IMG/VR virus record: IMGVR_UViG_3300025151_000041
Coordinates: 1 to 56,594 of that record
DNA: 56,594 nucleotides
Strand: one strand, 5' to 3'
From: a virus
Taxonomy: Duplodnaviria > Caudoviricetes
Shown piece after piece: positions 3,079-43,202 of the stretch (position 1 is its first letter; every line of letters begins with the position of its first letter). The notes beneath the pieces were generated by a model. The model had not been told where the DNA came from. It searched no databases and was given only the letters and a program-made list of their open reading frames with translations. A program made the translations under genes and the position numbers.

Positions 3079-4374
3079 ATGCAGGGAATAGCCAGTTTAC
3101 CATACGAAGTTGTCGAACAACCAATGATTCCTTTTACAGGAATTGGTTCAATGCCAAAGCAAGCCGAGATGCTTGCGGAGTTTGGTCGTAACGGAGACAC
3201 CTATATTGTTCACGCAGCAGAGGGTGAAACTGTTATACCAATGGAAGTTTTAAACGAAAACCCACGTTTGAAAAGTATGCTTTGGCAACAAATGGCAGAA
3301 ATGGGTATAGAGCCAGAGCGTTACATAGTTGGTAATGAGTTAAACAGTATAAACCCTGTAACTGGACAACCTGAGTTTTTTCTTAAAAAGATATTTAAAG
3401 GTGTGAAATCAGTCGTAAAAGCTGCTCTACCCGTTATAGGATTTGCTATTGGTGGTGCAATAGCTGGTCCAGTAGGTGCTGGTGTAGGAGCAGGGTTAGG
3501 AGCAAAAGTATCAGGACAATCTTGGAGTGACGCTGCTGTTACAGGTGTTTTAGCTGGAGTTGGTGCAAGTGCAGGTGGTATGTTCCCAAAAACCGAACAA
3601 GTTTCACTGTTTGAAGCTCCAGGAAAAGTATTAACTGATTTTGAAACAGGTATTAGAAATTTAGGAAAAAGTGGAAGTGAAAGAACTCTTGGTGGGTTTT
3701 TTGGTGGGACTACTCCTGCTCCTGTAACACCAGAAGGTTATACTTTTACTGATACTTTTGGAAATGTAACTAATGTTCCTGTAGCAGATGGAGTAGCCCA
3801 AATAGGATCAAACGTTCCACCAGCAACAAGCGGTTTAGGTGGTTTAGGGAGCGATATAAGAGCTGTTTTAGATACTCCAGGAAAAAGACTTTTAGCAACG
3901 GCGGCTGTTCCTTTTGTAGTGAAAGCTGCAACAGAAAAACCTCCGCCACTCCAAGACCCTCCAGCGACAGGTGTAGACTATTTAAGAGAAAATCCAGAAA
4001 AATATGGGTTTGATATTGCACGTTTTACTTCACCTTTTGATAAAACCTATACCGAAGGCGGTAGCAAACTTGGAAAAGTTGGTGAAAAAACTTCAGGTAT
4101 TATGTCTATGCAACCAAATATAATTGGGTACGACCAATATGGTAATCCTGTTTATGGACAACAACCAAACCAAATGCAAGTTGTTGCAGCAGATAGTGGC
4201 GGTGAAATAGTTGGTCCAGGAACAGGTACAAGTGATAGTATACCAGCAATGTTAAGTGATGGTGAGTTTGTAATGACAGCCAAAGCAGTGAAAAATGCAG
4301 GTAATGGCAATCGTAGAGCTGGAGCACAAAAAATGTATGCTATGATGAAACGTCTAGAAAAAGGAGCAGCATAG
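3079..4374 (+). CDS. internal virion / ejection protein
   Basis: Gly/Ala-rich hydrophobic segment; GPGTGTSDSIPAMLSDGEFV motif; position. Confidence 0.6.
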   Translation: MQGIASLPYEVVEQPMIPFTGIGSMPKQAEMLAEFGRNGDTYIVHAAEGETVIPMEVLNENPRLKSMLWQQMAEMGIEPERYIVGNELNSINPVTGQPEFFLKKIFKGVKSVVKAALPVIGFAIGGAIAGPVGAGVGAGLGAKVSGQSWSDAAVTGVLAGVGASAGGMFPKTEQVSLFEAPGKVLTDFETGIRNLGKSGSERTLGGFFGGTTPAPVTPEGYTFTDTFGNVTNVPVADGVAQIGSNVPPATSGLGGLGSDIRAVLDTPGKRLLATAAVPFVVKAATEKPPPLQDPPATGVDYLRENPEKYGFDIARFTSPFDKTYTEGGSKLGKVGEKTSGIMSMQPNIIGYDQYGNPVYGQQPNQMQVVAADSGGEIVGPGTGTSDSIPAMLSDGEFVMTAKAVKNAGNGNRRAGAQKMYAMMKRLEKGAA

Positions 4375-13494: not shown

Positions 13495-13580
13495 GTTGCC
13501 CTCTTTCTGATAGGGTTTGTATTGCTTAAACTTAACAAATATTGTAATATAAAACTATACTTTTTTTATCTTTTCTTAAC

Positions 13581-13735
13581 TTTACTATATAGATGTTATA
13601 GTGGAGGTTTTAAGGTGAAAAAGTTTTACAGTTTTATAATATACAATATACAATATATTTTCCGCTGATGGGGACTCAAAAGTTAGTAAAAAAATAAAAG
13701 CTGATTTCCCCACTAGCACATCTATATAGAAAACT
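13581..13735. repeat. inverted-repeat-bounded non-coding element, copy 1
   Basis: Left arm ctatatagatgttatagtgg (13585), right arm ccactagcacatctatatag (13710-13729); homologous to 36190-36359. Confidence 0.85.
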
Positions 13736-13749
13736 AGAAAGGTAGTCGT

Positions 13750-13968
13750 ATGGAAGAACCAAAATGTAATATTTGTAAGGATTTAAAGTACGTTTGTATG
13801 CTAGATGTAAATGATGCTCCACGAGCCTCTACGGTATGTCGGTGTTACAAGTGCAATGTACCAAGAGAAGATGCTGAAACTGGAAAAACAGCAGATTCTA
13901 TTGTTTTTCGAGGGAACAAAAAACAGGTGTACGAAAAGTTCTATGAACTAACAACAGACAAAAATTAA
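13750..13968 (+). CDS. small Cys-rich (Zn-binding) protein
   Basis: CxxC...CxCxxC; AGAAAGG leader. Confidence 0.55.
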   Translation: MEEPKCNICKDLKYVCMLDVNDAPRASTVCRCYKCNVPREDAETGKTADSIVFRGNKKQVYEKFYELTTDKN

Positions 13969-14027
13969 CTTTGCTTATGCTTTTTAGTATGGCATTGTAT
14001 ATAACTTATTAGCATGGGGAGAAAGCC

Positions 14028-14357
14028 ATGACGGTTTTTATAATTCAAGAAATGCGAGGTCGTGATGTTTCAGATGCCTCTGAGTTTGGCGACCTTGAAA
14101 TATTATTACCAGCCAAGGAACAGGCAAGTTTTAGTACTCAGCCTACGATAAGGCGTATGGTAAGAAGTTTGTCGAAGTTTTCCGACGACGATTATTTATT
14201 ATTAGCAGGTGATCCTGCTGGGATTGCTATTGCAGGTGCTCTCGCCGCACAGAATAACAGAGGTTATTTTAAAATGCTAAAGTGGGATAGGCTCGATCAA
14301 AAGTATTATCCACTCGAAGTAAATTTAAATCAAAAGTTAGGAGGTAAAAGTGAGTAG
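14028..14357 (+). CDS. hypothetical protein
   Basis: 109 aa, GGGGAG RBS, DDDYLLLAGDP. Confidence 0.6.
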   Translation: MTVFIIQEMRGRDVSDASEFGDLEILLPAKEQASFSTQPTIRRMVRSLSKFSDDDYLLLAGDPAGIAIAGALAAQNNRGYFKMLKWDRLDQKYYPLEVNLNQKLGGKSE

Positions 14358-20345: not shown

Positions 20346-20708
20346 ATGGTTATGGCAGTAGTACAGATACATTGGTACACTCGTATCAAACCACTTGTAG
20401 ATAAACCTCCAATTCGTGAGGGAACAATTCGTTATAGAAATATGTTTGTTGTCATTCGTAGCCAAACAGTACGAGAGGCTTTGCACAGGCTCAAACAATT
20501 AGAGCCAAAAGGCAGTATGAAAGACATACACTTAGCCGTAAAAAAAGAAGCGGTAGAACTTATGTATCCTGAGGACATGGCAGAAGAGCAATACGCAAGT
20601 ATTGATGAATCTATACGCATGAGTTTAGAAGGGTTGGAAAGTGTAGAGTCTAGAACACAAAAGCTAACAACGTATATGAAGGAGTTTAATGATGACAAAC
20701 CTTCCTGA
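20346..20708 (+). CDS. hypothetical protein heading the DNA-modification operon
   Basis: 120 aa; TATAAT and AGAAAGG leader; overlaps the next gene. Confidence 0.55.
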   Translation: MVMAVVQIHWYTRIKPLVDKPPIREGTIRYRNMFVVIRSQTVREALHRLKQLEPKGSMKDIHLAVKKEAVELMYPEDMAEEQYASIDESIRMSLEGLESVESRTQKLTTYMKEFNDDKPS

Positions 20709-21624
20709 CGCTACATTGAAAAAATACCAAGAATTTTACTATTGGATAAACGAAAGACACGCAATATATCAAAAGCGTAAGGAAAATCTTCCTCCTCCTT
20801 GGACAGATGACCCCATACTACAAGAATATAAATTTACAAACCCTTTTCGTGAAAACGATAGAGACACAATATGGATGAGACAAAATTGGACTAAGCCACA
20901 CCATAACAGACCACACGGAGAAATTATATTCAACTGTTGTTTGTTCCGTATGGTTGGCACACCAGAATTTGCCGAACATCACGGGTGGGTTCATGACATG
21001 AATGGCACTTGGGACTCAGAAAAAACAAAAGAAATTATAGAGCTTCGATTATCTCAACGTCAAAAAACTTTTACAGGAGCTTACATAATTCCAAACAGGG
21101 GTTTGACTTTACCAAAATCGCAAGTTGTTGTGGATCTTTTTCTTAAACCAATATGGGAAAATCGAGAAGTGATAGCAAATGTCGCCAAGTGTTCGCAGTC
21201 TTTACAACACACACATGAACACTTTGCCAATTACAATGGTTGGGGTGGTGGCGGATTTATGGCGTATGAAGTTGTAACAGATTTAAACAACACACCTGTT
21301 CTTAAAGATGCACAAGACCGTTACAGGTGGGCGAACGCAGGACCAGGAGCAAGGAGAGGTTTAAATAGGTTACATGGCAGACCACTCAAAAAACGATACC
21401 CTATGAGTCAGCTTAACGACGAGATGAACCATTTGTTAAGTTGGGCAGAGGCTTTTGCAGGTGATCATGTTCCTAAAAACGAAATTGATATGCGTGTTAT
21501 AGAGCATAGTTTGTGTGAATGGGATAAATACCAACGAGTATTGTTAAACGAGGGTAGACCTAGATCAAAGTACAATCCTGACTTAGTATCTAATCACAAT
21601 TTTGTAGCAGGACCGATTGACTAA
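20689..21624 (+). CDS. 5-hmdU DNA kinase helical-domain (aGPT-PPlase1-type) DNA base-modification protein
   Basis: WINERH.IY, PPPWTDDPILQEYKFTN..RE.DR.T.W, G.GGFMAYEVVTDL, AGPGARRGL, IEHSLCEWDKY. Confidence 0.8.
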   Translation: MMTNLPDATLKKYQEFYYWINERHAIYQKRKENLPPPWTDDPILQEYKFTNPFRENDRDTIWMRQNWTKPHHNRPHGEIIFNCCLFRMVGTPEFAEHHGWVHDMNGTWDSEKTKEIIELRLSQRQKTFTGAYIIPNRGLTLPKSQVVVDLFLKPIWENREVIANVAKCSQSLQHTHEHFANYNGWGGGGFMAYEVVTDLNNTPVLKDAQDRYRWANAGPGARRGLNRLHGRPLKKRYPMSQLNDEMNHLLSWAEAFAGDHVPKNEIDMRVIEHSLCEWDKYQRVLLNEGRPRSKYNPDLVSNHNFVAGPID

Positions 21625-22940
21625 TGAAATTTTTAATGACTATACACTATATTCAAGATTATGGTGGGATAATGAACCACGCCGAATATCTTGCAAAAGG
21701 TTTAAAAGCACTTGGGCATGAAGTTGATTTTGTTTCGTTGCTTCCGCAATTTTCGACAACACAAAGCAATCGACCACGAAAAGATATGGAAGAGTATCGT
21801 ACTGTTGGCACAGGATACCCCTACCACCAGAAACGAGGATGGATGGGTGTACCAAGAGTAGGCTATCGAGATATGTACACAAGAAAAAAGTGGCTAGAAA
21901 AATGCAGTAAGTATGATGCCGTGTTGTGGCACTTGCCTGTTCCTGCTCTAACAGCTCCAAACAAAAATGTTCAAGAGTGGGTAGAGCTTTACGATCATGG
22001 GAGCAAAAACATAGCAATAATACATGATGGTAATTTAAGAGAACGCAACTGTCATTTGCTTCATGTTTCGGATAAGTTTCATGCTATGGTTTGTGTTCAT
22101 GAATCCGCTATGGGTTCAGCAGATGTAATCGACATACCCCGAAAGCTGATTGTAAACCCTTTCGATTTTGACTTGGAGCAACTTGAAAACGACATATACG
22201 GTAACTCTAACTTTGAACAAAGAAGCGGTTTTTGTGCAGTACAGGTATTCAAAGGCTGGAAACGTGTTGATACTTTAATAAGAGCAATACCCCACATGAA
22301 AAACCAAGAACAGAAAACACTTGGTGGTTTGGGTATAGAGTTTCGTTACATGACAAGCAAGGATAAATGCAAGCCGAAGTATTTTGAAAAAGGAGAACGT
22401 ATTTGGGATATTGCTTTGCGTCATGGCATGAAACATTTAGGAGCTGTTCCGAATGACAATGTGTATAAGTTACTTCAAACAGCAAAGGTACAAATAGACC
22501 CTAGCTTTAGTGACAAGTATCGTAAGTTTGGTTCTCATTTTAACCGCACAACTATAGAAGCTATAATTAATGGTACTGTTCCTATGGCAACTGATTGGGG
22601 TATGCAAGACAGTAAGATATTCACTCCTGGAGAAAACTTCATTGAAATACCTAAAAGTAGTTCACCACAACAATTTGCTGAAATTGTTGACGGTGCGTTA
22701 AATGATCACGTTTTCTGGCAACGAGTGAGAGAAACTAATTTACAGATTATCGAGCAATTTCACATGGTAAACGTAGCAAGTGAGTATGTAAAACTTGTCA
22801 CTGACCCTGTTAATTCCTTACCAAAAGGAACACCAGATTTAACAACTCAATTAAACTGTGTGGAAACTTTAAAATATTTCAATGTAGAGCCAAAAGAGGT
22901 AGGAGTATTGCAAGCAGAGAAACAGGCAACACTTTTTTAG
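21624..22940 (+). CDS. GT-B fold glycosyltransferase
   Basis: N-terminal YGG...L.KGLKALGHEV; KGWKRVDTLIRA; HFNRTTIEAIINGTVP. Confidence 0.75.
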   Translation: MKFLMTIHYIQDYGGIMNHAEYLAKGLKALGHEVDFVSLLPQFSTTQSNRPRKDMEEYRTVGTGYPYHQKRGWMGVPRVGYRDMYTRKKWLEKCSKYDAVLWHLPVPALTAPNKNVQEWVELYDHGSKNIAIIHDGNLRERNCHLLHVSDKFHAMVCVHESAMGSADVIDIPRKLIVNPFDFDLEQLENDIYGNSNFEQRSGFCAVQVFKGWKRVDTLIRAIPHMKNQEQKTLGGLGIEFRYMTSKDKCKPKYFEKGERIWDIALRHGMKHLGAVPNDNVYKLLQTAKVQIDPSFSDKYRKFGSHFNRTTIEAIINGTVPMATDWGMQDSKIFTPGENFIEIPKSSSPQQFAEIVDGALNDHVFWQRVRETNLQIIEQFHMVNVASEYVKLVTDPVNSLPKGTPDLTTQLNCVETLKYFNVEPKEVGVLQAEKQATLF

Positions 22941-33428: not shown

Positions 33429-33878
33429 ATGGAACCAGATTTAATTATAAATCGTACTTTACAATCCAGCTTGTTTAAGGATCCAAGTTTAAAGCATCAT
33501 GGCTTTATGTTTTTCGACAGTATTCTCGATAACAAAAATTTCTTGCAAGCCTTAAAAACAAGAAATTATAATGATCGGCAAATTACACATTTAGATCTTT
33601 TATACCAATCATTTTGCCGATATCCAAATCGTACAACGTGGGCTTTGGTTACTTCTTTTTCCGACGAAGCCAACGTATTTGTTTCCGATTACTGTAACAA
33701 ACATCTAACACACCAAGAAAAATTTAACCTGTTAGACGAAAATACAAATCTCGGCTACACACGTTGGATCGACAAAACAACAGGTGAAAAATACCACTGC
33801 GTCCAAGTCGTCGACGATCTCGACACCGACGAAAGTGCAGAACCAGCAAGCGAAATCTGGTTTTTCGGTGGCGTTTAA
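33429..33878 (+). CDS. early hypothetical protein
   Basis: 149 aa after cassette leader. Confidence 0.65.
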   Translation: MEPDLIINRTLQSSLFKDPSLKHHGFMFFDSILDNKNFLQALKTRNYNDRQITHLDLLYQSFCRYPNRTTWALVTSFSDEANVFVSDYCNKHLTHQEKFNLLDENTNLGYTRWIDKTTGEKYHCVQVVDDLDTDESAEPASEIWFFGGV

Positions 33879-34469: not shown

Positions 34470-34961
34470 ATGAACATGATTGATGATATCGAAATTTCGA
34501 AAAACTTAAATTCCTGGGAAGAGATTAGCTGGGAATTTTTAAACCAAAACGTCTACGATAGTACCGAGTACGACGAAGACGGCAATAACCCATTAGCCAA
34601 AGAAATAGTTGCCAAGTTGCAAGAAATTTTAAGCGGTGATTTAAGCGGTACAGTTCACGACAAAGACAACGATTTTTTGGATAAAATATACCTGTACGAT
34701 CCCGAGATTGGTGGCGAAACACCCGAAGATTTAATTTTGTTTTGCACAAAACAAGACGAGTTTGTTGGGTCCACCGGAAGCCTTAAATGGGTAACAGTGT
34801 GGGAAAAGGACTACGCCGACACAAAAAACCAAACCTATCATTATATAAAAGTTTTAAATGATTACCCCGAAACCCTAGATTACCTTTACATGGAAATTGG
34901 GTTAAGCGGTAGTCCTAACAGTAGCATTACGCCATTCTTTGTAAAAGCAAGAATGTCGTAA
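34470..34961 (+). CDS. early acidic hypothetical protein
   Basis: AGAAAGGG leader; D/E-rich. Confidence 0.65.
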   Translation: MNMIDDIEISKNLNSWEEISWEFLNQNVYDSTEYDEDGNNPLAKEIVAKLQEILSGDLSGTVHDKDNDFLDKIYLYDPEIGGETPEDLILFCTKQDEFVGSTGSLKWVTVWEKDYADTKNQTYHYIKVLNDYPETLDYLYMEIGLSGSPNSSITPFFVKARMS

Positions 34962-35381: not shown

Positions 35382-35846
35382 ATGAAAAAATACGATCTCG
35401 AAAAATGGCAAGGGTATTCTCAACTTGCCACCGTTCCAACCGAAAAGGTGCTTTTTGGTCTTATCGACACAGTTGTCGAAGAAGCAAATGCTAAATGGTC
35501 ATTTAAATGTTTTTTGGAAGTCGATTACGAAGCACAACAAAAAAGAATGCCAGGATCTTATACAGTACCAAAACCACTCTGGTACAATATCGAAGAACAC
35601 GGCGTTCAGCCACAACTTATCGAAGAAATTAAACAGGTTGTCGACAATCCTAAAAAATTGTGCGGTCAACCTATTGTTCTCAATATGCCTCTTGATTTTA
35701 TGGGTTTGGATAAAAGCACCGACGCTGTTCTGCGTGGTATAGAAAAAACCGAAATCAAGTTTTACCACCATCCACAGGGGTTGCTAATCGAAATTTCTTA
35801 CGACGATTACGGTCCTCAAGATTACATTTTATGTCATACAAAATAA
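35382..35846 (+). CDS. early hypothetical protein
   Basis: 154 aa after cassette leader. Confidence 0.65.
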   Translation: MKKYDLEKWQGYSQLATVPTEKVLFGLIDTVVEEANAKWSFKCFLEVDYEAQQKRMPGSYTVPKPLWYNIEEHGVQPQLIEEIKQVVDNPKKLCGQPIVLNMPLDFMGLDKSTDAVLRGIEKTEIKFYHHPQGLLIEISYDDYGPQDYILCHTK

Positions 35847-35865: not shown

Positions 35866-36186
35866 ATGGGTTATACAAACTATTGGAAACAACACACAAA
35901 TATTCCAGACGAAGTTTGGGATTCAATACGAAAAGAAATCGAATGGCTAATAGAATATATTGGTGACGGTTGTATCGAAGTGTTGGAAAATAGCTCGGAA
36001 ACTATTGCCTTTAACGGCAGAAAACAAAACGCACACGAAAATTTTGTTCTCAAGAAAACAAAAACCAAGGACGGTTTTAACTTCTGCAAAACCAACAGAA
36101 AACCTTACGATCTCGCAGTATGGCATATTCTAACGTATACAAGCCATTTGTTAGGAACAAATTTCGAAATTAGCAGGGACGAATGA
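35866..36186 (+). CDS. conserved phage hypothetical protein
   Basis: MGYTNYW, FNG....HENF, FNFCKTNRKPYD.AV; aaccatagaaagggg leader. Confidence 0.7.
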   Translation: MGYTNYWKQHTNIPDEVWDSIRKEIEWLIEYIGDGCIEVLENSSETIAFNGRKQNAHENFVLKKTKTKDGFNFCKTNRKPYDLAVWHILTYTSHLLGTNFEISRDE

Positions 36187-36394: not shown

Positions 36395-36976
36395 ATGGCA
36401 ACTGTAAAAATGACTCACAAACCCAAACTTGAGGTTGTAGCAAATCCCAAAACCGAGAAGGGAATTTCCCCAAAGCAAGAACGTTTTGCTCAAATTTACT
36501 GTAGCGAAGAACTCACGCAAACGGAAGCGGCAATCAAAGCAGGGTATCCAAAACAATCGGCTCACGTTTTGGCAAGTCAGCTACTCAATGGAAAACGATA
36601 CCCAAAGGTTGTAGAACGTATCCGTGAAATCAAACAAGAACTTGCTCGCAAGTATGAAGTCACATTCGAAAGCCATGTGAAACAACTTGCTTCGCTCCGA
36701 GACAGTGCCGTACAGAATGGCAACTTCTCAGCCGCCGTATCTGCCGAAAAGTATAGAGGTCAAGCGGCTGGATTGTATATCGACAGGAAAGAAATACTGC
36801 ATGGCAAGATTGATCAAATGTCGAAGGAAGAGGTTATGGAAAAAATTAAACAATTACAGCAAGAGTTTCCTGGACTGCAAGCAGTGGCAGAGGGAAACGT
36901 AATCGAAGTGGAGGCAGAGCAAATCACCGATGAAAGTGGAAAGCAAGCTATGGAAACAACTAAAACAAAACACTGA
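36395..36976 (+). CDS. terS: terminase small subunit
   Basis: SPKQERFA...TQTEAAIKAGY....A...ASQLL HTH; AAVSAE..RG...GLY. Confidence 0.8.
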   Translation: MATVKMTHKPKLEVVANPKTEKGISPKQERFAQIYCSEELTQTEAAIKAGYPKQSAHVLASQLLNGKRYPKVVERIREIKQELARKYEVTFESHVKQLASLRDSAVQNGNFSAAVSAEKYRGQAAGLYIDRKEILHGKIDQMSKEEVMEKIKQLQQEFPGLQAVAEGNVIEVEAEQITDESGKQAMETTKTKH

Positions 36977-37385
36977 GCGTGAGGTATTTTGGACACGTAT
37001 TGAGTCATGGTCGCTTCCTGGAGTACCAGATCTTCACGGCATTGTAGATGGTAAAGCATTTTGGTTAGAATTGAAGGTTCACAAACTAAAAAAGATTAAT
37101 AGCTTGCTATTGAGTCCACATCAAAAACTGTGGCAAATCCGCTACACAATGTCTGGCGGTAAAGTTTGGAACTTAGTTGACCACCCTTCCTCCTCCACCC
37201 TCTATTTATTTTTGCCTTCGGAATCATTGGTAAAGGATCAAAAAGTAAGAGTAGAGAAGAAAAGACCGTCATCAAAAGTTTATCATAAAATTGGTAAAGA
37301 TGCAGAGTTAAATAATCCTGTTTGGCAGTCCCCCTCCCCGTATGATTGGAAAGGTTTGATCAATCATATTCTGTCCTCCTTTTAG
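36930..37385 (+). CDS. VRR-NUC / Holliday-junction resolvase-like PD-(D/E)xK nuclease
   Basis: ESKLW, RIES...GVPDL, FWLELK, LSPHQ..W. Confidence 0.75.
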   Translation: MKVESKLWKQLKQNTEREVFWTRIESWSLPGVPDLHGIVDGKAFWLELKVHKLKKINSLLLSPHQKLWQIRYTMSGGKVWNLVDHPSSSTLYLFLPSESLVKDQKVRVEKKRPSSKVYHKIGKDAELNNPVWQSPSPYDWKGLINHILSSF

Positions 37386-37467
37386 AATTGACGTGGTAAG
37401 GTAAGAAAAGGAAAGACGGACAATGGTTTCTGGTCTGTTCTAATCCAGTCAGTAGAAAAGAAAAAAA

Positions 37468-37502
37468 TAGATTAGATTAGACCAGAGTAGATTAGACTAG
37501 AC
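37468..37502. repeat. 7 x 5-bp tandem repeat (consensus TAGAY)
   Basis: tagat tagat tagac cagag tagat tagac tagac. Confidence 0.8.
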
Positions 37503-37606
37503 CCTTTCATACTTACTTGCTCTACGTGACCATAAAACTGTTGTTTAGGACTTATAGTTTGGTAGTTTGTATTTGCTTAATATTAACACAACGAAAGGCA
37601 ACGGTC

Positions 37607-37981
37607 ATGAGCAACGATCATATCGAAAACGACATACTTATAAAAGGCGACCCCAACATAGTTTCTAAGTACCAGCAAATCCTCGAAAACGAATTTGGGT
37701 TGTTTGGGTCAATAGTAGTAAACGAAGGTCCAGGGTGGGCTAGTGTGGGTTGCATTTTCGACGACGATTACAGGCAATACAACGATCTAAAAACATTTGC
37801 TAAAAATTTATTGCAACAGTTAAACAAGTCTAGGGCAAGCCAACGAATATTCGACAGGCACGATCCTGCAAAACTCGAATACCATTGGTATTATATTTTT
37901 GGTAGCGAGATCGACAAACAGTTAAACGGTATAAGTGGTCATTACAGCATGGTTCGAAACTTTTTCGATAATAGGTGTTAG
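37607..37981 (+). CDS. early-type hypothetical protein
   Basis: Start MSNDH after acgaaagg leader. Confidence 0.65.
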   Translation: MSNDHIENDILIKGDPNIVSKYQQILENEFGLFGSIVVNEGPGWASVGCIFDDDYRQYNDLKTFAKNLLQQLNKSRASQRIFDRHDPAKLEYHWYYIFGSEIDKQLNGISGHYSMVRNFFDNRC

Positions 37982-37984
37982 GTC

Positions 37985-38056
37985 ATGGTTGTAGTAGTCA
38001 CAATGTTATTAACACTTTGGATCACTGTTCTTATTCTTGAGTTCTGGGATTGGTAA
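37985..38056 (+). CDS. possible 23-aa membrane peptide
   Basis: Manual: MVVVVTMLLTLWITVLILEFWDW*. Confidence 0.3.
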   Translation: MVVVVTMLLTLWITVLILEFWDW

Positions 38057-38112
38057 AGATGTAGAAGGTAAAGTTTGAGTGGGGAAAAAGATGTAAGGAG
38101 TAAAGCAGGAAG

Positions 38113-38162
38113 GTAAGATCCTAGAACAAGATTTGGTTAGTGTTCTTGTTCTTGGGTCTTAC
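38113..38162. repeat. long imperfect inverted repeat (19-bp stem)
   Basis: gtaagatcctagaacaaga / tcttgttcttgggtcttac. Confidence 0.7.
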
Positions 38163-38227
38163 TCCCTTTATCTATTCATTGCATCTAGCGTTTTTGCCTA
38201 CTGTGGTATTTTTACCACAAAATAGGG

Positions 38228-38295
38228 TTAAATTAAAAAAAGTTAAAAAAGGTTAAAAAAAGGGTTGCAATAGTGTTTTATTGGTGTAGGGTAGT
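38228..38295 (+). promoter_or_regulatory. putative strong promoter with three A-tracts at 10-bp phase (UP element / bend)
   Basis: ttaaaaaaag ttaaaaaagg ttaaaaaaaggg, then TTGCAA (-35) and a TAGGGT-like -10. Confidence 0.55.
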
Positions 38296-38356
38296 ACCTG
38301 TAGCTAGCAATTAACACATAGCTACATAACATTAACCAAATAAGGGTTTAACAATT

Positions 38357-39022
38357 ATGTTAAATAAAAAGCAAGTACCAAGTGCTAGTACTATAAAAAA
38401 AGCACTACCTAAGTTGGCTTTCGAAAGTTTGCCGATACCTGCTAATAGCGAAATGGTTAGCAATTTTTTAAATGCTAACCCTAACAGTGTGTTAACTGTT
38501 AACGTCGATAAGCTTAACCCTAACGCCGAAACTTTAAGTAGTATAGCTTTGGCTAGTGGTGTTAAGTTATACACCGATAAGGTTAAATATACTGTTAGCG
38601 TTAATGCTTACCACGTTGGTATGTACTTACAACAGTACGGCGTACACCCAACAAGTAAAACGCCAATTAGCGGTTTAAAAAAAGGTGTATTGCAGTTAAA
38701 TTTTGGTGCAAGTACTACACCAACTAACAAGCTAGCCGAAATTTATACAAGGGTTAAGCCTAGTGTTTATGCACCTTGTAACGGCGTACCATTTACGGCA
38801 ACGGCTTGTAGTGGTAACGGCAAGTATGCCCATTGCACCTTGTTACCATTGCTTAATGGTTGCAAGTTAAATAATAACAATGGTTACGACGCTAGGGGTA
38901 AACAAGCTAGTAACCCTAACGGTGTACTTGTTACTTTACATAGTAACGCTAACGCCATACAAACGGCTACAGTGCCACAAATAAAGTTTTATAAAAACTT
39001 TATTAAAATATTAAAAGGTTAA
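38357..39022 (+). CDS. basic hypothetical protein encoded in the GA/TC-depleted island
   Basis: 221 aa, only 7 D/E; TAAGGG RBS; terminator directly downstream. Confidence 0.75.
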   Translation: MLNKKQVPSASTIKKALPKLAFESLPIPANSEMVSNFLNANPNSVLTVNVDKLNPNAETLSSIALASGVKLYTDKVKYTVSVNAYHVGMYLQQYGVHPTSKTPISGLKKGVLQLNFGASTTPTNKLAEIYTRVKPSVYAPCNGVPFTATACSGNGKYAHCTLLPLLNGCKLNNNNGYDARGKQASNPNGVLVTLHSNANAIQTATVPQIKFYKNFIKILKG

Positions 39023-39028
39023 ACCTTA

Positions 39029-39058
39029 TGCCCCTAGGCTAACGCCTAGGGGCAATTT
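39029..39058 (+). terminator. hairpin terminator
   Basis: tgcccctaggc-taac-gcctaggggca followed by attt. Confidence 0.7.
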
Positions 39059-39259
39059 AACGGCGGTTTTTTGGCATGGTAATTGCAATAAAAAAGCAAA
39101 ACCCCCCCAAAACGTGAGGGCGAGTAAGCATAGGCTTACGAGCATATTCCAGCTCTAAAATTATGTGTCCAGAAAATACCGTAGTCCGTCGTACCCCTTT
39201 TTTGCATAATGGACTTTAGGTTCATTGCCCTTTGAAAAATTCTATAATATAAGAATTAT

Positions 39260-40720
39260 ATGAACTTGGACATTGCCCCCGAAGAAGCGTTGAAAACGTA
39301 TGCGAAGTTGCTGGGTAGAGCGACGGAGTTAACGGAGAGTGAAAAAGCGAGAAAGAACTTTATTGACTTTGTGCGGAGTGTTTGGCCTGAGTTTATAGGA
39401 GGCAAGCACCATAGTGTAATGGCGGATAAGTTTAACCGAGTGGCGAAGGGTGAGTTAAAGCGGTTGATTGTGAATATGCCGCCGAGACATACAAAATCTG
39501 AATTTGCGAGTTTTTTATTGCCAGCGTGGTTGATGGGTAGAAACCCGAAGTTAAAGATAATGCAGACGACCCACACAGCGGAGCTTGCTTTTAGATTTGG
39601 ACGTAAGGTTCGTAACTTAATGAACACGGAAGATTATGCGAAGGTATTTGAAAAAGTGAAGTTGCGAGCGGACAGCCAAGCGGCAGGTCGGTGGGAAACC
39701 AGTGATGGTGGAGAGTATTTTGCGGCAGGAGTGGGTGGTGCGGTAACGGGACGTGGAGCGGACTTGTTGATAATCGACGACCCACATTCCGAGCAGGATG
39801 CGTTGAACCCGAACAGTTTTGAACACGCCTATGAGTGGTATACCTCTGGACCTCGCCAAAGGCTCCAACCAGGAGGTTCGATAGTTGTCGTGATGACAAG
39901 GTGGGCGGAAAACGATTTAACGGGCAAAGTGCTAAAGCAGATGGCTCGTGATCCGTTGGCGGATAAGTGGGAGGTTGTGGAGTTTCCTGCGTTGTTGCCG
40001 AGTGATACTCCAACGTGGCCAGAGTTTTGGAAACAAGAAGATTTATTGGCGGTAAAGGGTAGCCTAAGTGTAGGAAAGTGGGAGGCACAGTGGCAGCAGA
40101 ACCCGACCAGTGAAACGTCGGCTATTTTAAAACGTGACTGGTGGCAAAAGTGGGAGAAGAAAGATTTACCGAAATTAACGTATGTGATGCAGAGTTATGA
40201 TACGGCGTTCAGTAAAAAAGAGCATTCCGACTATAGTGCGATAACAACGTGGGGAGTTTTTTATCCCCCAGATGGAGGAAAAGCGTGTATAATTCTAGCA
40301 GATGCGAGACGTGGTCGGTGGGATTTTCCTGATTTACGTCGGATAGCGTTAGAGGAATACAAGTATTGGGAGCCAGAAACCGTGTTGATAGAGGCGAAGG
40401 CAAGTGGAATGCCGTTAACACAAGAGTTGCGGAATATGGGAATCCCTGTTACAAATTATAGCCCAAGTAGAGGAAATGATAAATTGAGCCGTGTGAATAG
40501 TGTTGCACCAATTCTAGAAAGCGGTATGGTATATGCTCCCGACACAACGTGGTCGGAAGAGGTGATTGAGGAATGTGCGGCTTTTCCTGCTGGGGAAAAT
40601 GACGATTATGTAGATACGGTAACACAGGCGTTAAGAAGATTTAGAGAAGGCGGTTTTATAGTTCACCCCGAAGACTACGAACCAGAGGACAGCCAACCTC
40701 TAGCAAGGGTATATTACTAA
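39260..40720 (+). CDS. terL: terminase large subunit
   Basis: NMPPRHTKS, GRGADLLIIDDP, VMTRW, SYDTA, DYSA, IEAKASG, DDYVD. Confidence 0.95.
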   Translation: MNLDIAPEEALKTYAKLLGRATELTESEKARKNFIDFVRSVWPEFIGGKHHSVMADKFNRVAKGELKRLIVNMPPRHTKSEFASFLLPAWLMGRNPKLKIMQTTHTAELAFRFGRKVRNLMNTEDYAKVFEKVKLRADSQAAGRWETSDGGEYFAAGVGGAVTGRGADLLIIDDPHSEQDALNPNSFEHAYEWYTSGPRQRLQPGGSIVVVMTRWAENDLTGKVLKQMARDPLADKWEVVEFPALLPSDTPTWPEFWKQEDLLAVKGSLSVGKWEAQWQQNPTSETSAILKRDWWQKWEKKDLPKLTYVMQSYDTAFSKKEHSDYSAITTWGVFYPPDGGKACIILADARRGRWDFPDLRRIALEEYKYWEPETVLIEAKASGMPLTQELRNMGIPVTNYSPSRGNDKLSRVNSVAPILESGMVYAPDTTWSEEVIEECAAFPAGENDDYVDTVTQALRRFREGGFIVHPEDYEPEDSQPLARVYY

Positions 40721-40733
40721 AGGAGAATTAACA

Positions 40734-43202
40734 GTGGCTAAAGAACCTTCTGTTTTCAATAATGTTGAAAAGTCGTTGGTACGACCTCCAGCCGCCGCCA
40801 ACAGTTTAGAAGAAGCCGAACTGTTAGAAAAAGAAAACGATTTACTGGCAACGGGTGAGCAACAATTAGAAATCGAAATTGAGGAAGATGACGAGGGTGG
40901 TGCGGTTATCAACTTTGGCAGCGAAACGGAAGTTATTGCTACGGAGTTTGATGGCAACTTGGCGGAGGTGCTTTCCGACCGTGAGCTGAGCGATATTAGC
41001 AGTTATGTAACCCAGAGCCACCAAGATGACAAAAGTTCTAGAGAAGATTGGGAAGATACCTACAGCAAAGGACTTGACCTTTTAGGTTTGCGGTACGAAA
41101 TCCGTACTGAACCGTTTCAGGGAGCGACGGGAGTTATTCACCCAATACTTAACGAAGCTGTAACACAGTTTCAATCGGCGGCTTATAAAGAACTTTTGCC
41201 GAGCAATGGTCCTGTAAAGACAAAAATCATAGGCAAAGTAAATCAAGAAATAGAAAACAAAGCCGACAGAGTAAAAGAATTTTTAAATTATCAGATTATG
41301 TACGAAATGGAAGAGTACGAGCCTGAGTTTGACCAGATGTTGTACTATTTGGGTAACGCTGGCAGTGCTTTTAAGAAAGTTTACTTTGACCAACAGTTAA
41401 ATCGCCCTGTAAGTAAGTTTGTTCCAGCCGAAGATTTGGTTGTACCGTACACAGCGACCGACTTACGCTCTGCAGATCGTGTTACGCATGAAATAAGCAT
41501 GAGTATGAACGAGGCTCGGAAGCAACAGGTAAGTGGATTTTTCCGTGATATCGAGTTAATGCCAGAACAAGAGGGCAGCGAGGACTCAGTACAGGAAAAA
41601 ATGGACAAATTAGAGGGTGTAAAGCCTTCGTACAACGATAAAGACCGTGAACTAACGCTTTTGGAGTGCCATTGCTACCTCGATTTAGAGGATTTTCCTG
41701 ATGTTGGGGAAGATGGCGAGCCAACAGGCGTAAAACTCCCTTATATTGTGACTGTTTGTCGTGATAATGCGGAAGTTTTGGCGGTTCGTCGGAATTATAT
41801 GCAAGATGACCCTAAAAAAACTAAAATTGAGTACTTTGCCCACTATAAATTTACTCCAGGATTAGGGTTTTATGGCTTTGGGCTGATACATCTACTGGGA
41901 AATTTAAGTCGAACAGCGACAAGTACCCTTCGCCAGATGATAGATGCAGGAACATTAAGTAATTTACCAGCAGGGTTTAAAGCAAGAGGGCTGCGAATAG
42001 CAGACGATGAAAACCCTGTCCAGCCAGGAGAGTTTAGGGACGTAGATGTTCCAGGAGGAGATTTAAAAGGAGCTTTGCTGCCACTGCCTTATAAAGAACC
42101 TTCTGGAACTTTATTCCAATTAATGGGTTTTGTTATAGCCAGTGCTGAAAAATTTGTAGGAACACAAGATCTTGGCTTTGAAGGCAACCAAAGTGGAGAT
42201 ATGCCCGTTGGTACAACGGTAGCGTTGCTAGAACGTGGAAGCAAGGTAATCAGTGCGGTGCATAAACGCCTTCATGCGGCTATGCGTATAGAACTCAAAC
42301 TCCTTGCAAAATTATTTTCGGAACTTGCACCCGAAGAAGCCAAATACCCGTATGCTGTAGATGGACAACAAGCAGGACCTCAAGGACAAGTAGGACCAAA
42401 TATTTTTGCTCAGGACTTTAGTGCAGAAATCGACGTATTACCAGTTAGCGATCCTAACATCTTTAGTATGTCGCAACGTATTATGTTAGCACAGGAACAG
42501 CTCAAGTTGGCAATGGCTATGCCAGAGATGCACAATATGTACGAGAGTTTCCGTCGGTTGTACAGTGCGTTGGGTGTCGACAACATAGACGAATTGTTAA
42601 AAAGACCGCCAGATCCTGTGCCTGTAAGTCCAGCCGTAGAAAATGGAAAAGCACCGTTAGTTGTTACGGGTGGGGCTGAACCTCCGAAGGCGTTTCCTGA
42701 ACAAGATCATGATGCTCATATTGCAGCTCACTTGGCATTTTTACAGACAAAAGTGGTAAAAGAATCAACAGCTATATATGCTGTTATTTTGGAGCATATC
42801 TACCAGCACATAGGTTTTAAAGCTGAAATGATGGTTGCCTCAGAAATGCAACAACAGGGTATGCAACCAAACCCACAGCAAAAACCAATGATAGATGCAG
42901 CCATAGCACAGAAAATTGCACAGCTTACAGCCGAGTTTAATGAAATGGAAAAAGAAATGAGTGGTGGCGAACAACAAGATCCGCTTGTTGCGTTAAAACA
43001 ACGTGAACTCGACATAAAAGCTGGAGACCTTGCCCGTAAGCAACAAGATGACCAACGTGGGTTTGAGCTTGATAATAAAAAATTAACTCAAGCAGCTAAT
43101 CTACAAAGGGAAAGAATAGAGTCACAGGAAGACATAGCACAGCTAAGAGCTAATGTTGCAATGGATAAAACGTACAATGCACCAAGAGGAGCAGGACAAT
43201 GA
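40734..43202 (+). CDS. portal protein
   Basis: 822 aa right after terL; GSAFKKVYFD, GFYGFGLIH, PVGTTVALLE; C-terminal coiled coil (P22-like barrel). Confidence 0.85.
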   Translation: MAKEPSVFNNVEKSLVRPPAAANSLEEAELLEKENDLLATGEQQLEIEIEEDDEGGAVINFGSETEVIATEFDGNLAEVLSDRELSDISSYVTQSHQDDKSSREDWEDTYSKGLDLLGLRYEIRTEPFQGATGVIHPILNEAVTQFQSAAYKELLPSNGPVKTKIIGKVNQEIENKADRVKEFLNYQIMYEMEEYEPEFDQMLYYLGNAGSAFKKVYFDQQLNRPVSKFVPAEDLVVPYTATDLRSADRVTHEISMSMNEARKQQVSGFFRDIELMPEQEGSEDSVQEKMDKLEGVKPSYNDKDRELTLLECHCYLDLEDFPDVGEDGEPTGVKLPYIVTVCRDNAEVLAVRRNYMQDDPKKTKIEYFAHYKFTPGLGFYGFGLIHLLGNLSRTATSTLRQMIDAGTLSNLPAGFKARGLRIADDENPVQPGEFRDVDVPGGDLKGALLPLPYKEPSGTLFQLMGFVIASAEKFVGTQDLGFEGNQSGDMPVGTTVALLERGSKVISAVHKRLHAAMRIELKLLAKLFSELAPEEAKYPYAVDGQQAGPQGQVGPNIFAQDFSAEIDVLPVSDPNIFSMSQRIMLAQEQLKLAMAMPEMHNMYESFRRLYSALGVDNIDELLKRPPDPVPVSPAVENGKAPLVVTGGAEPPKAFPEQDHDAHIAAHLAFLQTKVVKESTAIYAVILEHIYQHIGFKAEMMVASEMQQQGMQPNPQQKPMIDAAIAQKIAQLTAEFNEMEKEMSGGEQQDPLVALKQRELDIKAGDLARKQQDDQRGFELDNKKLTQAANLQRERIESQEDIAQLRANVAMDKTYNAPRGAGQ

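Follow-up and report, generated by a model that had tools for sequence, protein, structure and literature searches.

The sequence rules of thymidine hypermodification in phages are so far known from restriction patterns only. The motifs were given as not yet known in the passage of Lee et al. (2018) that concerns them, and Flodman et al. (2019; PMC6449724), in the sections bearing on this question, report that the sites that resist restriction in M6, ViI and phiW-14 have TG or TC in common, propose the kinase of the pathway as the source of specificity, and note that exonuclease III degrades modified phiW-14 DNA more slowly. For Acinetobacter phage SH-Ab 15599, the pertinent part of PMC13458397 (2026) describes strong modification of TG and less of TC, with MboI (GATC) blocked strongly and TaqI (TCGA) weakly. 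Here we describe a 56,594-bp stretch of viral DNA (IMG/VR record IMGVR_UViG_3300025151_000041, referred to at its full length as the window) in which a gene-sized island at 38185-39114, just upstream of terL, lacks the dinucleotide TC on both strands except before G, and in which single-strand versions of the same depletion flank the island.

The window represents a marine podophage encoding a 5-hydroxymethyldeoxyuridine (5-hmdU) DNA kinase pathway for thymidine hypermodification. It is a complete IMG/VR virus record, classed as linear and 96% complete, without end repeats, and nearly all of its genes lie on the plus strand. Its nearest named DNA relatives, Pelagibacter phage HTVC027P and phage 023Pt_psg01, match it in terL only, at ~67% identity. 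The kinase gene, a homologue of thymidylate synthase (ThyA) and a glycosyltransferase gene of the GT4 type form one cluster with a family-A DNA polymerase gene nearby, and the phage also encodes an archaeo-eukaryotic primase (AEP). The ThyA homologue is probably a deoxyuridine monophosphate (dUMP) hydroxymethylase, on the basis of matches that do not separate methylase from hydroxymethylase, and the GT4 product, a possible tailoring enzyme, also matched Glyco_trans_1_4 (28.5 bits, over the cut-off of 27) and Glyco_transf_4 (26.7 bits, under the cut-off of 28.5). A gene set of this kind is the hallmark of phages in which 5-hmdU stands in for T and is partly hypermodified once replication is over. 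Homologues of the kinase occur in 369 phage records, those of M6, YuA and SH-Ab 15599 among them. The window resembles the 5-hmdU kinase phages M6, ViI, phiW-14, PaMx11 and SH-Ab 15599 in having the kinase beside a ThyA homologue and close to a DNA polymerase gene. It differs from them in two respects: it carries the GT4 gene while no Pfam or PHROG match to aGPT-Pplase or an amino-acid transferase (AADT) was obtained among the window open reading frames (ORFs) scanned, and its clade has a long dinucleotide-free stretch, none of which appeared when five other kinase carriers (M6, Sonora, SH-Ab 15599, Cba120 and LuckyBarnes) were scanned for a long gap in any dinucleotide step. The SH-Ab 15599 record MH517022.1 seems to start free of the motif, but its positions 1-105 are a run of 105 A and most likely an assembly or sequencing artefact.

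The gene order around the island is terS, a nuclease-like gene, ORF124, a spacer, the island with its own gene (ORF221), terL and an SU10-like portal gene. Hereafter TCH denotes TC followed by A, C or T, and DGA denotes GA other than CGA. The island has zero TCH and zero DGA over 931 bp, against a longest other gap of 62 bp in the window; both of its TC are TCG and all eight of its GA are CGA. The remainder of the genome keeps ~5900 TC/GA steps, and the plus strand of the window has 3959 GA versus 1937 TC. To judge such counts against chance, two nulls were used, one in which the protein was kept and codons were redrawn from genome-wide usage, and one in which a gene's own codons were permuted among synonymous positions, with 5000 draws per null for ORF124 and for the 5' part of terL. 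Under genome codon usage the island ORF would be expected to contain 22.1 TCH and 17.6 DGA, and it contains none of either. The island sequence occurs once in the record, and no second copy of its edges or of its upstream region was found in the window.

The island is a conserved feature of the clade. Among 80 TerL loci from IMG/VR, with an island defined as 180 bp or more without TCH and DGA, 20 carried one, its right end 150-540 bp upstream of terL; all 20 were at or above 73% TerL identity, and no island was found in any of the more distant of the 80 loci (<73% identity). No more than a single TC or GA, of whatever kind, occurs in 17 of 21 islands over 0.4-1.2 kb, and the islands of the window (10 TC/GA) and of locus L002 (16) retain only TCG/CGA. 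Their GC content ranges from 0.31 to 0.63, and the genomes with islands at 0.51-0.63 GC are themselves ~0.37-0.41 GC. A single plus-strand ORF of 120-225 aa, nearly without Asp and Glu, is found in every island. In pairs of related island ORFs third-position differences prevail (e.g. 20/20/65, with 47 synonymous codon changes), which identifies them as real genes under purifying selection, and since the TC/GA-free state has been kept through this synonymous turnover, it is maintained by selection and not by mutational decay. Two further loci at or above 73% TerL identity, L003 and L004, have a relaxed island (~4 TC and 15 GA per 500 bp) surrounding a gene of the main island family, with a normally composed paralogue 0.7 kb upstream. 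The sequences of the remaining loci in this identity range start at or near the right edge of the island (L006 and L031) or within terL (L018, L028, L036 and L076). In L004 (79% TerL identity) the two paralogues lie at 2306-2761 and 3416-3835; the one beside terL is purged of TC/GA in part and keeps some Asp/Glu, and the other has normal composition, so the island gene family is not acid-free by nature.

The content of the island changes rapidly. Thirteen island ORFs form one family, and ORF221 of the window and ORF221 of L002 lie outside it and are mutually unrelated. Despite 96% TerL identity, no alignment of the window with L002 could be made between the ORF124 stop and the C-run at 39102-39108, and in run X4 a strain departs from the window sequence at 38261. 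Five further metagenome contigs of the window's sub-lineage carry islands (four of 944-971 bp; that of L103, 564 bp, is clipped by the contig start), with two distinct types of island ORF among them. Left island edges are unrelated among loci. At the right boundary, or no more than ~20 nt from it, 17 of 20 loci show a C-run (absent from L017 and L019, and four C only in L034), the TGAnGA/GAGA stretch and hairpin that follow it having been read by eye and left uncounted, and the first GA after the window's island falls within this element. Further towards terL, the AGGTTCAT core was absent only from L017, L019, L021 and L030, where a 75-76-aa ORF sits, and is followed by TTGCCC in 9 of 16 loci. 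Taken together, these comparisons describe the island as a hypervariable cassette in a fixed frame.

Its layout reads as that of a promoter-gene-terminator cassette, with promoter and terminator putative. Phased A-tracts (38226-38262) precede the putative sigma-70-type promoter, and in relatives TTGCAA or TTTACA with near-consensus -10 boxes was read by eye at the same place; these hexamers stand in for TTGACA, which would bring GA/TC. Outside its sub-lineage, ORF221 had no detectable homology to other relatives' island genes and no Pfam or PHROG family, and the same two databases gave no match for 15 island proteins. A structure model of the island family reached a predicted local distance difference test (pLDDT) score of 58, with no fold match at E 0.001 in PDB or BFVD. 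For the functions of the island protein and ORF124, the ESM Atlas likewise yielded no usable match. No repeat array or iterons were found inside the island.

To the right of the island the depletion is confined to the plus strand. The earlier note on this DNA had counted five TC (three TCG) and abundant GA in the first 580 bp of terL, and a recount over 39260-39840 gave exactly these numbers, with the two TCH at 39497 and 39788. The first 579 nt contain 2 TCH versus 12.7 under genome codon usage (0 of 5000 draws) and versus 6.4 when terL's own codons were permuted across the gene (95 of 5000), the residual 5' gradient having p ~0.02. GA is not depleted, DGA in the whole gene being 115 versus 101.7 under genome usage. 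Only 7 of 28 terL serines are encoded by TCN, compared with 312 of 528 in structural genes, the shift being to AGY. The right-hand bias is mostly terL codon choice, plus a 5' gradient.

Supporting a clade-wide effect, the plus-strand TC odds ratio of terL is 0.18-0.71 in 14 clade loci versus 0.70-1.22 in 18 other relatives. Binned by 500 bp, beginning at the terL start, the clade values are 0.42, 0.51, 0.64, 0.56, 0.72, 0.55, 0.59 and 0.59 (others 0.83-1.05), and when measured from the island in 15 sequences the ratio is ~0.6 through the portal gene and 0.76-0.95 past 4 kb, with GA at 1.05-1.2 and so not depleted. A general poverty of C in terL, raised earlier as a caveat, does not account for this, since TC is the sole outlier of 16 dinucleotides when clade and other terL genes are compared (0.47), GA standing at 0.93 and CC being raised to 1.36. 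Avoidance of Rho-loading (YC) sites in terL was likewise rejected on the enrichment of CC. The effect belongs to the position and not to the TerL protein, since non-homologous small ORFs that some relatives have between the island and terL (two families, six of six loci) are TC-poor as well (TC 0.36-0.54, GA 1.05-1.55). The first type of insert encodes 75-76 aa with a coiled-coil-like N-terminus and a hydrophobic C-terminus (L017 1459-1683, L019, L021 and L030) and the second an acidic protein of 55-72 aa (L005 1107-1271, L008 5066-5281); both types are GA-rich and TC-poor. No comparable TC deficit was found at the start of the other large operon, at 13.7-15.7 kb. Third codon positions of terL are 35% G versus 12-17% elsewhere in the window; island-less relatives reach 0.52 and are thus also rich in third-position G, so this bias is a terL trait apart from the TC effect.

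To the left of the island the depletion is on the minus strand and of a different kind. The earlier counts for ORF124 (19 of 21 GA as CGA, about 9 plus-strand TCH, and a ribosome-binding site region reading aCGAaagg) were all reproduced exactly; the two DGA are at 37608 (in ATGA) and 37908 (in GAGATC), and the CGA of the ribosome-binding site region is at 37592. The two DGA compare with 21.3-21.5 under genome codon usage (minimum 11, 0 of 5000 draws reaching 2, z -6.4) and with 15.0 when the gene's own codons were permuted (minimum 8, 0 of 5000, z -5.7). Conversely, its 19 CGA compare with 5.9 under genome usage (z +6.4; z +5.4 to +6.4 across the nulls). C precedes every Asp/Glu codon but one, and the bias is one of context-dependent codon placement, as C is set before nearly all GAN codons. 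ORF124 encodes an acidic orphan protein with seven close protein clusters and no Pfam family (structure model pLDDT 55).

Similar deficits recur further left gene by gene, with DGA z values (own codons permuted) of -2.5 for the ORF at 35866 and of -4.0 to -4.5 for the three small ORFs listed in the table, each paired with a CGA excess, and values near zero beyond 31 kb. The earlier caveat that terS, the nuclease-like gene and the spacer at 38050-38185 do not follow the pattern proved well founded: the two genes have unbiased z values, and 38019-38184 is rich first in DGA and then in TCH, the left arm of its hairpin being GA-dense and the right arm, which abuts the island, TC-dense. This 98-nt hairpin looks like the terminator of a separate ORF124 unit; an Rfam match to a plant miRNA family on 38093-38180 (30 bits versus a gathering score of 85) was taken as chance. 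The sub-lineage contigs L105-L107 and L002 repeat the left-flank DGA pattern, and the ORF124 homologue of L002 is also DGA-free. No left GA deficit is seen in the full-length relatives G001-G003 (per-gene z -2.1 to +2.0 in the last 3 kb), and the mean GA odds ratio left of the island over relatives, 0.84 within the first 500 bp, is 0.94-1.14 farther out. Confinement of the left signal to the sub-lineage is plausibly explained if the GA of Asp/Glu codons is removable only where CGA is exempt, which holds only here.

Several minor features of the left flank vary among strains. ORF124 is missing from the sub-lineage contig L104, and its upstream region is duplicated before another cassette in L105 and L106. 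These two contigs have two extra small cassettes between ORF124 and the island (332-535 and 584-793 in L105; 341-544 and 593-802 in L106), one with a 68-aa ORF (TCH 0, DGA 2-4), which the copy of the ORF124 upstream region precedes, and one with a 70-aa hydrophobic ORF (TCH 9, DGA 1-2). In L002 about three tandem ~16-nt GA-rich units follow the ORF124 homologue (~380-440), where the window differs. The 22-nt motif TTGTATT(T)GCTTAAnnTTAACA upstream of ORF124 has a second plus-strand copy at 13517-13537, at the head of the replication module, and no further copies in the window.

The earlier note had proposed that the TC/GA bias becomes single-stranded and flips polarity across the island, each strand being TCH-poor as it leaves the island 5' to 3', and had suggested a cumulative skew corrected for amino-acid content as a check. 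We computed this skew over genes as the plus-strand excess of TC over expectation minus that of GA, with genome codon usage, and found a local maximum at the island in four of four genomes (the window and three full-length relatives). In the window the skew rises by ~75 from 32.6 kb to the island and falls by ~60 over terL and the portal gene; the corresponding values are +53/-107 in G001, +23/-18 to the contig end in G002 and +15/-71 in G003. The fall after the island is the largest skew step in each genome and the rise is modest, and outside the window the rise stems from plus-strand TC excess in terS and its neighbours and not from a GA deficit. The switch at the island is conserved, with a left component that is weak and different in kind. 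As such, the plus-strand half of the proposed rule stands on the right, where it is positional and clade-wide, and the minus-strand half holds on the left in the sub-lineage only, gene by gene and broken by the hairpin. As for whether the asymmetry would outlast correction for codon usage, the left component survives every correction, and the right one survives amino-acid correction and is largely absorbed by terL's own codons. The flip is a positional, clade-wide right effect meeting a gene-wise, lineage-specific left effect. No replichore-wide skew was seen: the cumulative GC skew rises monotonically, and the TC bias fades within 4-8 kb.

Presence of the island goes with presence of the kinase. 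A search of 23 related records located the kinase in 5, and these are all of the island-bearing records that reach ~18 kb upstream of terL (5/5); it was absent from all three complete island-less genomes (the record of L072, MW574966.1 and MN698241.1). As all island-bearers form one clade, this co-occurrence amounts to about one evolutionary event. The genome-wide TC odds ratio is 0.74-0.82 in kinase-bearing genomes and 0.91-1.08 in five of six island-less relatives (L055, 0.84). That the five unrelated kinase-bearing phages are without an island led us to reject it as a general property of such phages; the island is an invention of this clade and not a general need of phages with the kinase.

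To account for the counts, their significance and conservation, the maintenance of the motif-free state by selection and the presence of the kinase pathway, all of which are observed, we tentatively favour, at a confidence a little short of even, a strand-specific purging, around an early cassette kept free of modification, of the context that the phage itself modifies. In this phage 5-hmdU would take the place of thymidine and would then be hypermodified in part through the kinase pathway. The simplest reason for the purging would be that TC is the context of this hypermodification, such that TC-less DNA stays without the bulky base, the avoided word in the window's sub-lineage being TC not before G. 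A TC context with TCG exempt, which the restriction pattern of SH-Ab 15599 matches, is exactly the word absent from the island and from the template strand of ORF124, a resemblance between phages. Three zones can then be told apart. The first is an early-type cassette (sigma-70-like promoter, one fast-evolving gene and terminator) that is kept TC-free on both strands. In the second, on the right, the depletion is on the plus strand only, strongest in the first 500 bp and fading over 4-8 kb. The third, on the left and in the sub-lineage only, consists of individual genes of accessory or early type, ORF124 for one, in which the minus (template) strand alone is depleted, by way of C before nearly all Asp/Glu codons, a route presumably open only where CGA/TCG is exempt. 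We speculate that modified T is not tolerated on a strand along which a polar machine works. For the left cassettes a candidate is RNA polymerase reading the template strand. On the right, a graded positional effect that starts at the conserved element at 39102-39139 points to a polar DNA transaction beginning there, and the leading candidate would be 5' to 3' end-processing, packaging or a replication start at this element.

Several points weigh against this explanation. That TC is the target of the kinase is carried over from other phages, in which TG figures no less prominently. The minus strand, the template for nearly all genes, has about twice the TC of the plus strand, so that a template with modified T cannot be harmful as a rule. 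With terL's own codon usage preserved, its TCH deficit in the window falls to z -1.0. Separate explanations are called for on the left and on the right, which is unparsimonious, and no polar machine was identified. Finally, the clade-wide link between kinase and island may count for little more than a single event, and none of the five other kinase-bearing phages has a long dinucleotide-free stretch.

A more specific version, compatible with the purging of a modification context and its most economical form, takes the island for a direct terminal repeat of ~0.9 kb in collapsed form, with ends at 38186 and 39115, as the earlier note had suggested, in which the 5'-ended strand is purged for resection by a 5' to 3' exonuclease; we judge this unlikely, though it deserves serious consideration. 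We see the same limited likelihood for the broader idea that the island forms or abuts a genome end, where outward 5'-ended strands would be poor and 3'-ended strands rich in modified T, so that 5' to 3' machinery could process the ends while 3' tails are protected. Resection through a repeat would purge both strands and its extension into unique flanks one strand each, so that a single rule would cover all three zones. The location of the island between terS and terL, the C-run at its right edge in 17 of 20 loci, the graded and positional depletion on the right and the slower degradation of modified phiW-14 DNA by exonuclease III (reported in PMC6449724) are all consistent with this, and the missing left signal elsewhere could reflect Asp/Glu codons from which GA is irremovable unless CGA is exempt. 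However, the left edge is unconserved, a TC/GA-dense hairpin of ~100 nt lies there in the proposed path of resection, terS and the nuclease-like gene are unbiased, and the left flanks of G001-G003 are without a GA deficit.

Evidence from contigs bears on the same question. Two contigs begin at or near the right edge of the island (L031 at most 5 nt from it, L006 47 nt inside); breaks of this kind support a terminus but are equally explained by replacement of the cassette at strain level, as shown for the window and L002 and for the X4 strain. Logan contigs covering the island had 1.1-1.3x the depth of their neighbours in three runs, where a repeat predicts 1.4, 1.7 and 2.0x, with the limit that contig depth is no copy number. 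The records of HTVC027P and 023Pt_psg01 start in a gap homologous to 13.5-14.0 kb of the window; these starts are uninformative on physical ends, because HTVC027P, according to the part of its description that covers assembly, was put together as a circle and 023Pt_psg01 is a circular record. A 'terminal repeat' annotated by IMG/VR in the relative G009 is a 122-nt overlap inside an SNF2 gene and was discarded.

The second alternative invokes no polar process at all: the flip would be a by-product of gene order, each transcription unit being purged according to its own needs, with early and accessory cassettes purged on the template strand, the island on both and the first genes of the late operon on the coding strand. 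The left flank fits such an explanation, in that the signal there is gene-by-gene and skips terS and the nuclease-like gene, ORF124 has its own upstream element and terminator hairpin and is absent from L104, the extra cassettes of L105 and L106 differ in their purging (the 68-aa ORF lacking TCH, the 70-aa ORF keeping 9), and mild depletion also occurs far from the island, e.g. at 14028-14354 and in the SNF2 gene of the minus strand when read in its sense direction. The right flank fits it poorly, as unrelated genes at the same position are also depleted, there is a gradient inside terL, the other large operon start at 13.7-15.7 kb lacks a TC deficit, and no reason is known for base modification of the coding strand to harm expression. 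On balance we consider this explanation rather improbable.

Enzymes with TC-containing targets are found among single-stranded DNA cytosine deaminases, DarT-like thymidine ADP-ribosyltransferases and nucleases. A host enzyme of one of these types acting on TC in exposed DNA, with the purged strands being those that become single-stranded, would give a depletion as strand-specific and graded as that on the right, and such a cause would agree with the finding that the kinase alone is no predictor of the island in five other phages. We nevertheless regard it as decidedly improbable, given that genome-wide TC depletion is limited to kinase-bearing genomes and that decay by C-to-T deamination is unlikely with islands at 0.51-0.63 GC in genomes of ~0.37-0.41 GC. 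Decay of this kind was rejected on these GC-rich islands together with the serine shift from TCN to AGY, which C-to-T changes cannot produce. The weakest alternative, and a very improbable one, is the earlier suggestion of a bidirectional replication origin in the island with TC purged from the flanking lagging-strand templates: the sign of the polarity is the one required, a promoter-driven unit with hairpins behind it is reminiscent of transcript-primed phage origins and an AEP primase might be sensitive to template modification, but nothing persists past 4-8 kb, let alone to a terminus, the cumulative GC skew is monotonic with no turning point, the left half is missing in relatives, no iterons were found, and the island interior is unconserved and unalignable even between strains at 96% TerL identity.

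No description of a dinucleotide-free island in a hypermodified phage was found in the open-access papers searched, and the nearest parallels come from other systems. Avoidance of restriction sites likewise removes a short word from phage genomes by selection; it differs in that it concerns short palindromes, whereas here a dinucleotide is removed absolutely but locally (0.4-1.2 kb), non-coding DNA included and with single-strand versions flanking. ACA-less mRNAs that resist MazF are whole coding sequences freed of a short motif by choice of codons and neighbours, as in the C|GA placement of ORF124; the island, unlike them, is purged of motif and reverse complement, promoter and terminator included, which points to DNA and not mRNA as the level concerned. 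The long terminal repeats of T5 with their pre-early genes and the repeats of T7 with the gp6 exonuclease offer an early cassette beside packaging genes and a polarity that fits two-ended 5' to 3' resection; they differ from the island, whose left boundary is unconserved and which has a single copy in the record. Promoter-proximal TC mutation of the AID/APOBEC type would share a coding-strand TC deficit decaying over a few kb, and differs in that the serine shift and the GC-rich islands indicate selection against TC.

A clade of abundant marine phages carries a natural 'negative image', gene-sized, TC-less on both strands and spanning a two-fold range of GC content, which makes three claims open to test: the context of the kinase, a local harm of modified thymidine to a DNA or RNA transaction, and the strand which that transaction reads. 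If the explanation we favour is true, sequence alone would yield the recognition context of the kinase (TC, with TCG exempt in one sub-lineage), and the island would be the first sign of a local, strand-specific cost of hypermodification shaping phage genomes. The hypervariable early gene family, nearly without acidic residues, is in addition a candidate for an arms-race function.

Table. Features of the window discussed in the text, with the values on which each assignment rests
Feature	Position	Strand	Basis
5-hmdU DNA kinase	20689..21621	+	PF18723 HMUDK_hel, E 8.4e-50, 170 bits vs cut-off 25
GT4-type glycosyltransferase adjoining kinase; possible tailoring enzyme	21624..22937	+	Glycos_transf_1, E 3.6e-07, 30.3 bits vs cut-off 26.4
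Thymidylate-synthase homologue, 349 aa	23053..24099	+	Pfam Thymidylat_synt E 4e-20; phrog_5131 E 5e-103
Small ORF, sense-strand DGA avoidance and CGA/TCG excess like ORF124	33429..33875	+	DGA 11 vs 19.5, z -4.3; CGA z +3.4 (own codons permuted)
Small ORF, sense-strand DGA avoidance	34470..34958	+	DGA 24 vs 33.8, z -4.0; CGA z +2.7
Small ORF, sense-strand DGA avoidance	35382..35843	+	DGA 11 vs 20.3, z -4.5; CGA z +3.9
terS, unbiased for TC/GA	36395..36976	+	Terminase_2 E 1e-11; phrog_51; TCH z +1.2, DGA z -2.0
Nuclease-like gene, unbiased for TC/GA	36930..37385	+	phrog_2165 E 2e-16, phrog_93 endonuclease; TCH z +1.3, DGA z +1.0
Motif TTGTATT(T)GCTTAAnnTTAACA upstream of ORF124; putative shared promoter/operator	37567..37588	+	2 matches vs 0.06 expected
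ORF124, acidic orphan protein	37607..37981	+	minus (template) strand nearly without TCH
Long hairpin followed by T-run; likely terminator of ORF124 unit	38089..38186	+	-40.7 kcal/mol, z -4.7, 0/200 shuffles equal; inverted repeat I1
TCH/DGA-free island	38185..39114	.	TC 2, GA 8 vs 47, 61 expected
Putative sigma-70-type promoter TTGCAA-16-TAGGGT	38265..38292	+	read by eye; not listed by promoter scan
ORF221, island gene, no family	38357..39022	+	homologues in sub-lineage contigs L105, L106
Perfect 11-bp-stem hairpin after ORF221; putative terminator	39029..39054	+	inverted repeat I19; fold
Conserved right-boundary element	39102..39139	+	C7 run, TGAGGGCGAG, hairpin GTAAGC-ATAG-GCTTAC
Conserved AGGTTCATTGCCC...TATAAT element upstream of terL; putative late promoter	39218..39248	+	AGGTTCAT core in 16/20 loci
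terL	39260..40720	+	phrog_38 E 1e-109; TCH 18 vs 39.2, z -5.2
SU10-like portal gene, plus-strand TC depleted	40734..43202	+	SU10_portal E 1e-13; TCH 51 vs 73.9, z -3.8

Some observations away from the island complete the description. An ORF124 protein identical to that of the window (cluster P0001) is encoded on a 62151-bp contig, and the window ends inside ORFs at both sides; the genome of the phage may be ~5 kb longer than the window. After the nuclease-like gene, an inverted repeat of GATTAGA/TCTAATC units at 37429-37491 (fold z -3.2) is a possible terminator or protein-binding site. Where the minus-strand SNF2 gene and the replication module diverge, the intergenic region has TCH/DGA-free stretches at 13508-13569, 13616-13661 and 13956-14018, those of 61 and 62 bp being the second and third longest of the window and the remaining one being of 45 bp, and a TTTACA...TATAAT-like site is present at 13625. 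Early promoters may also be kept without the TCH/DGA motif.

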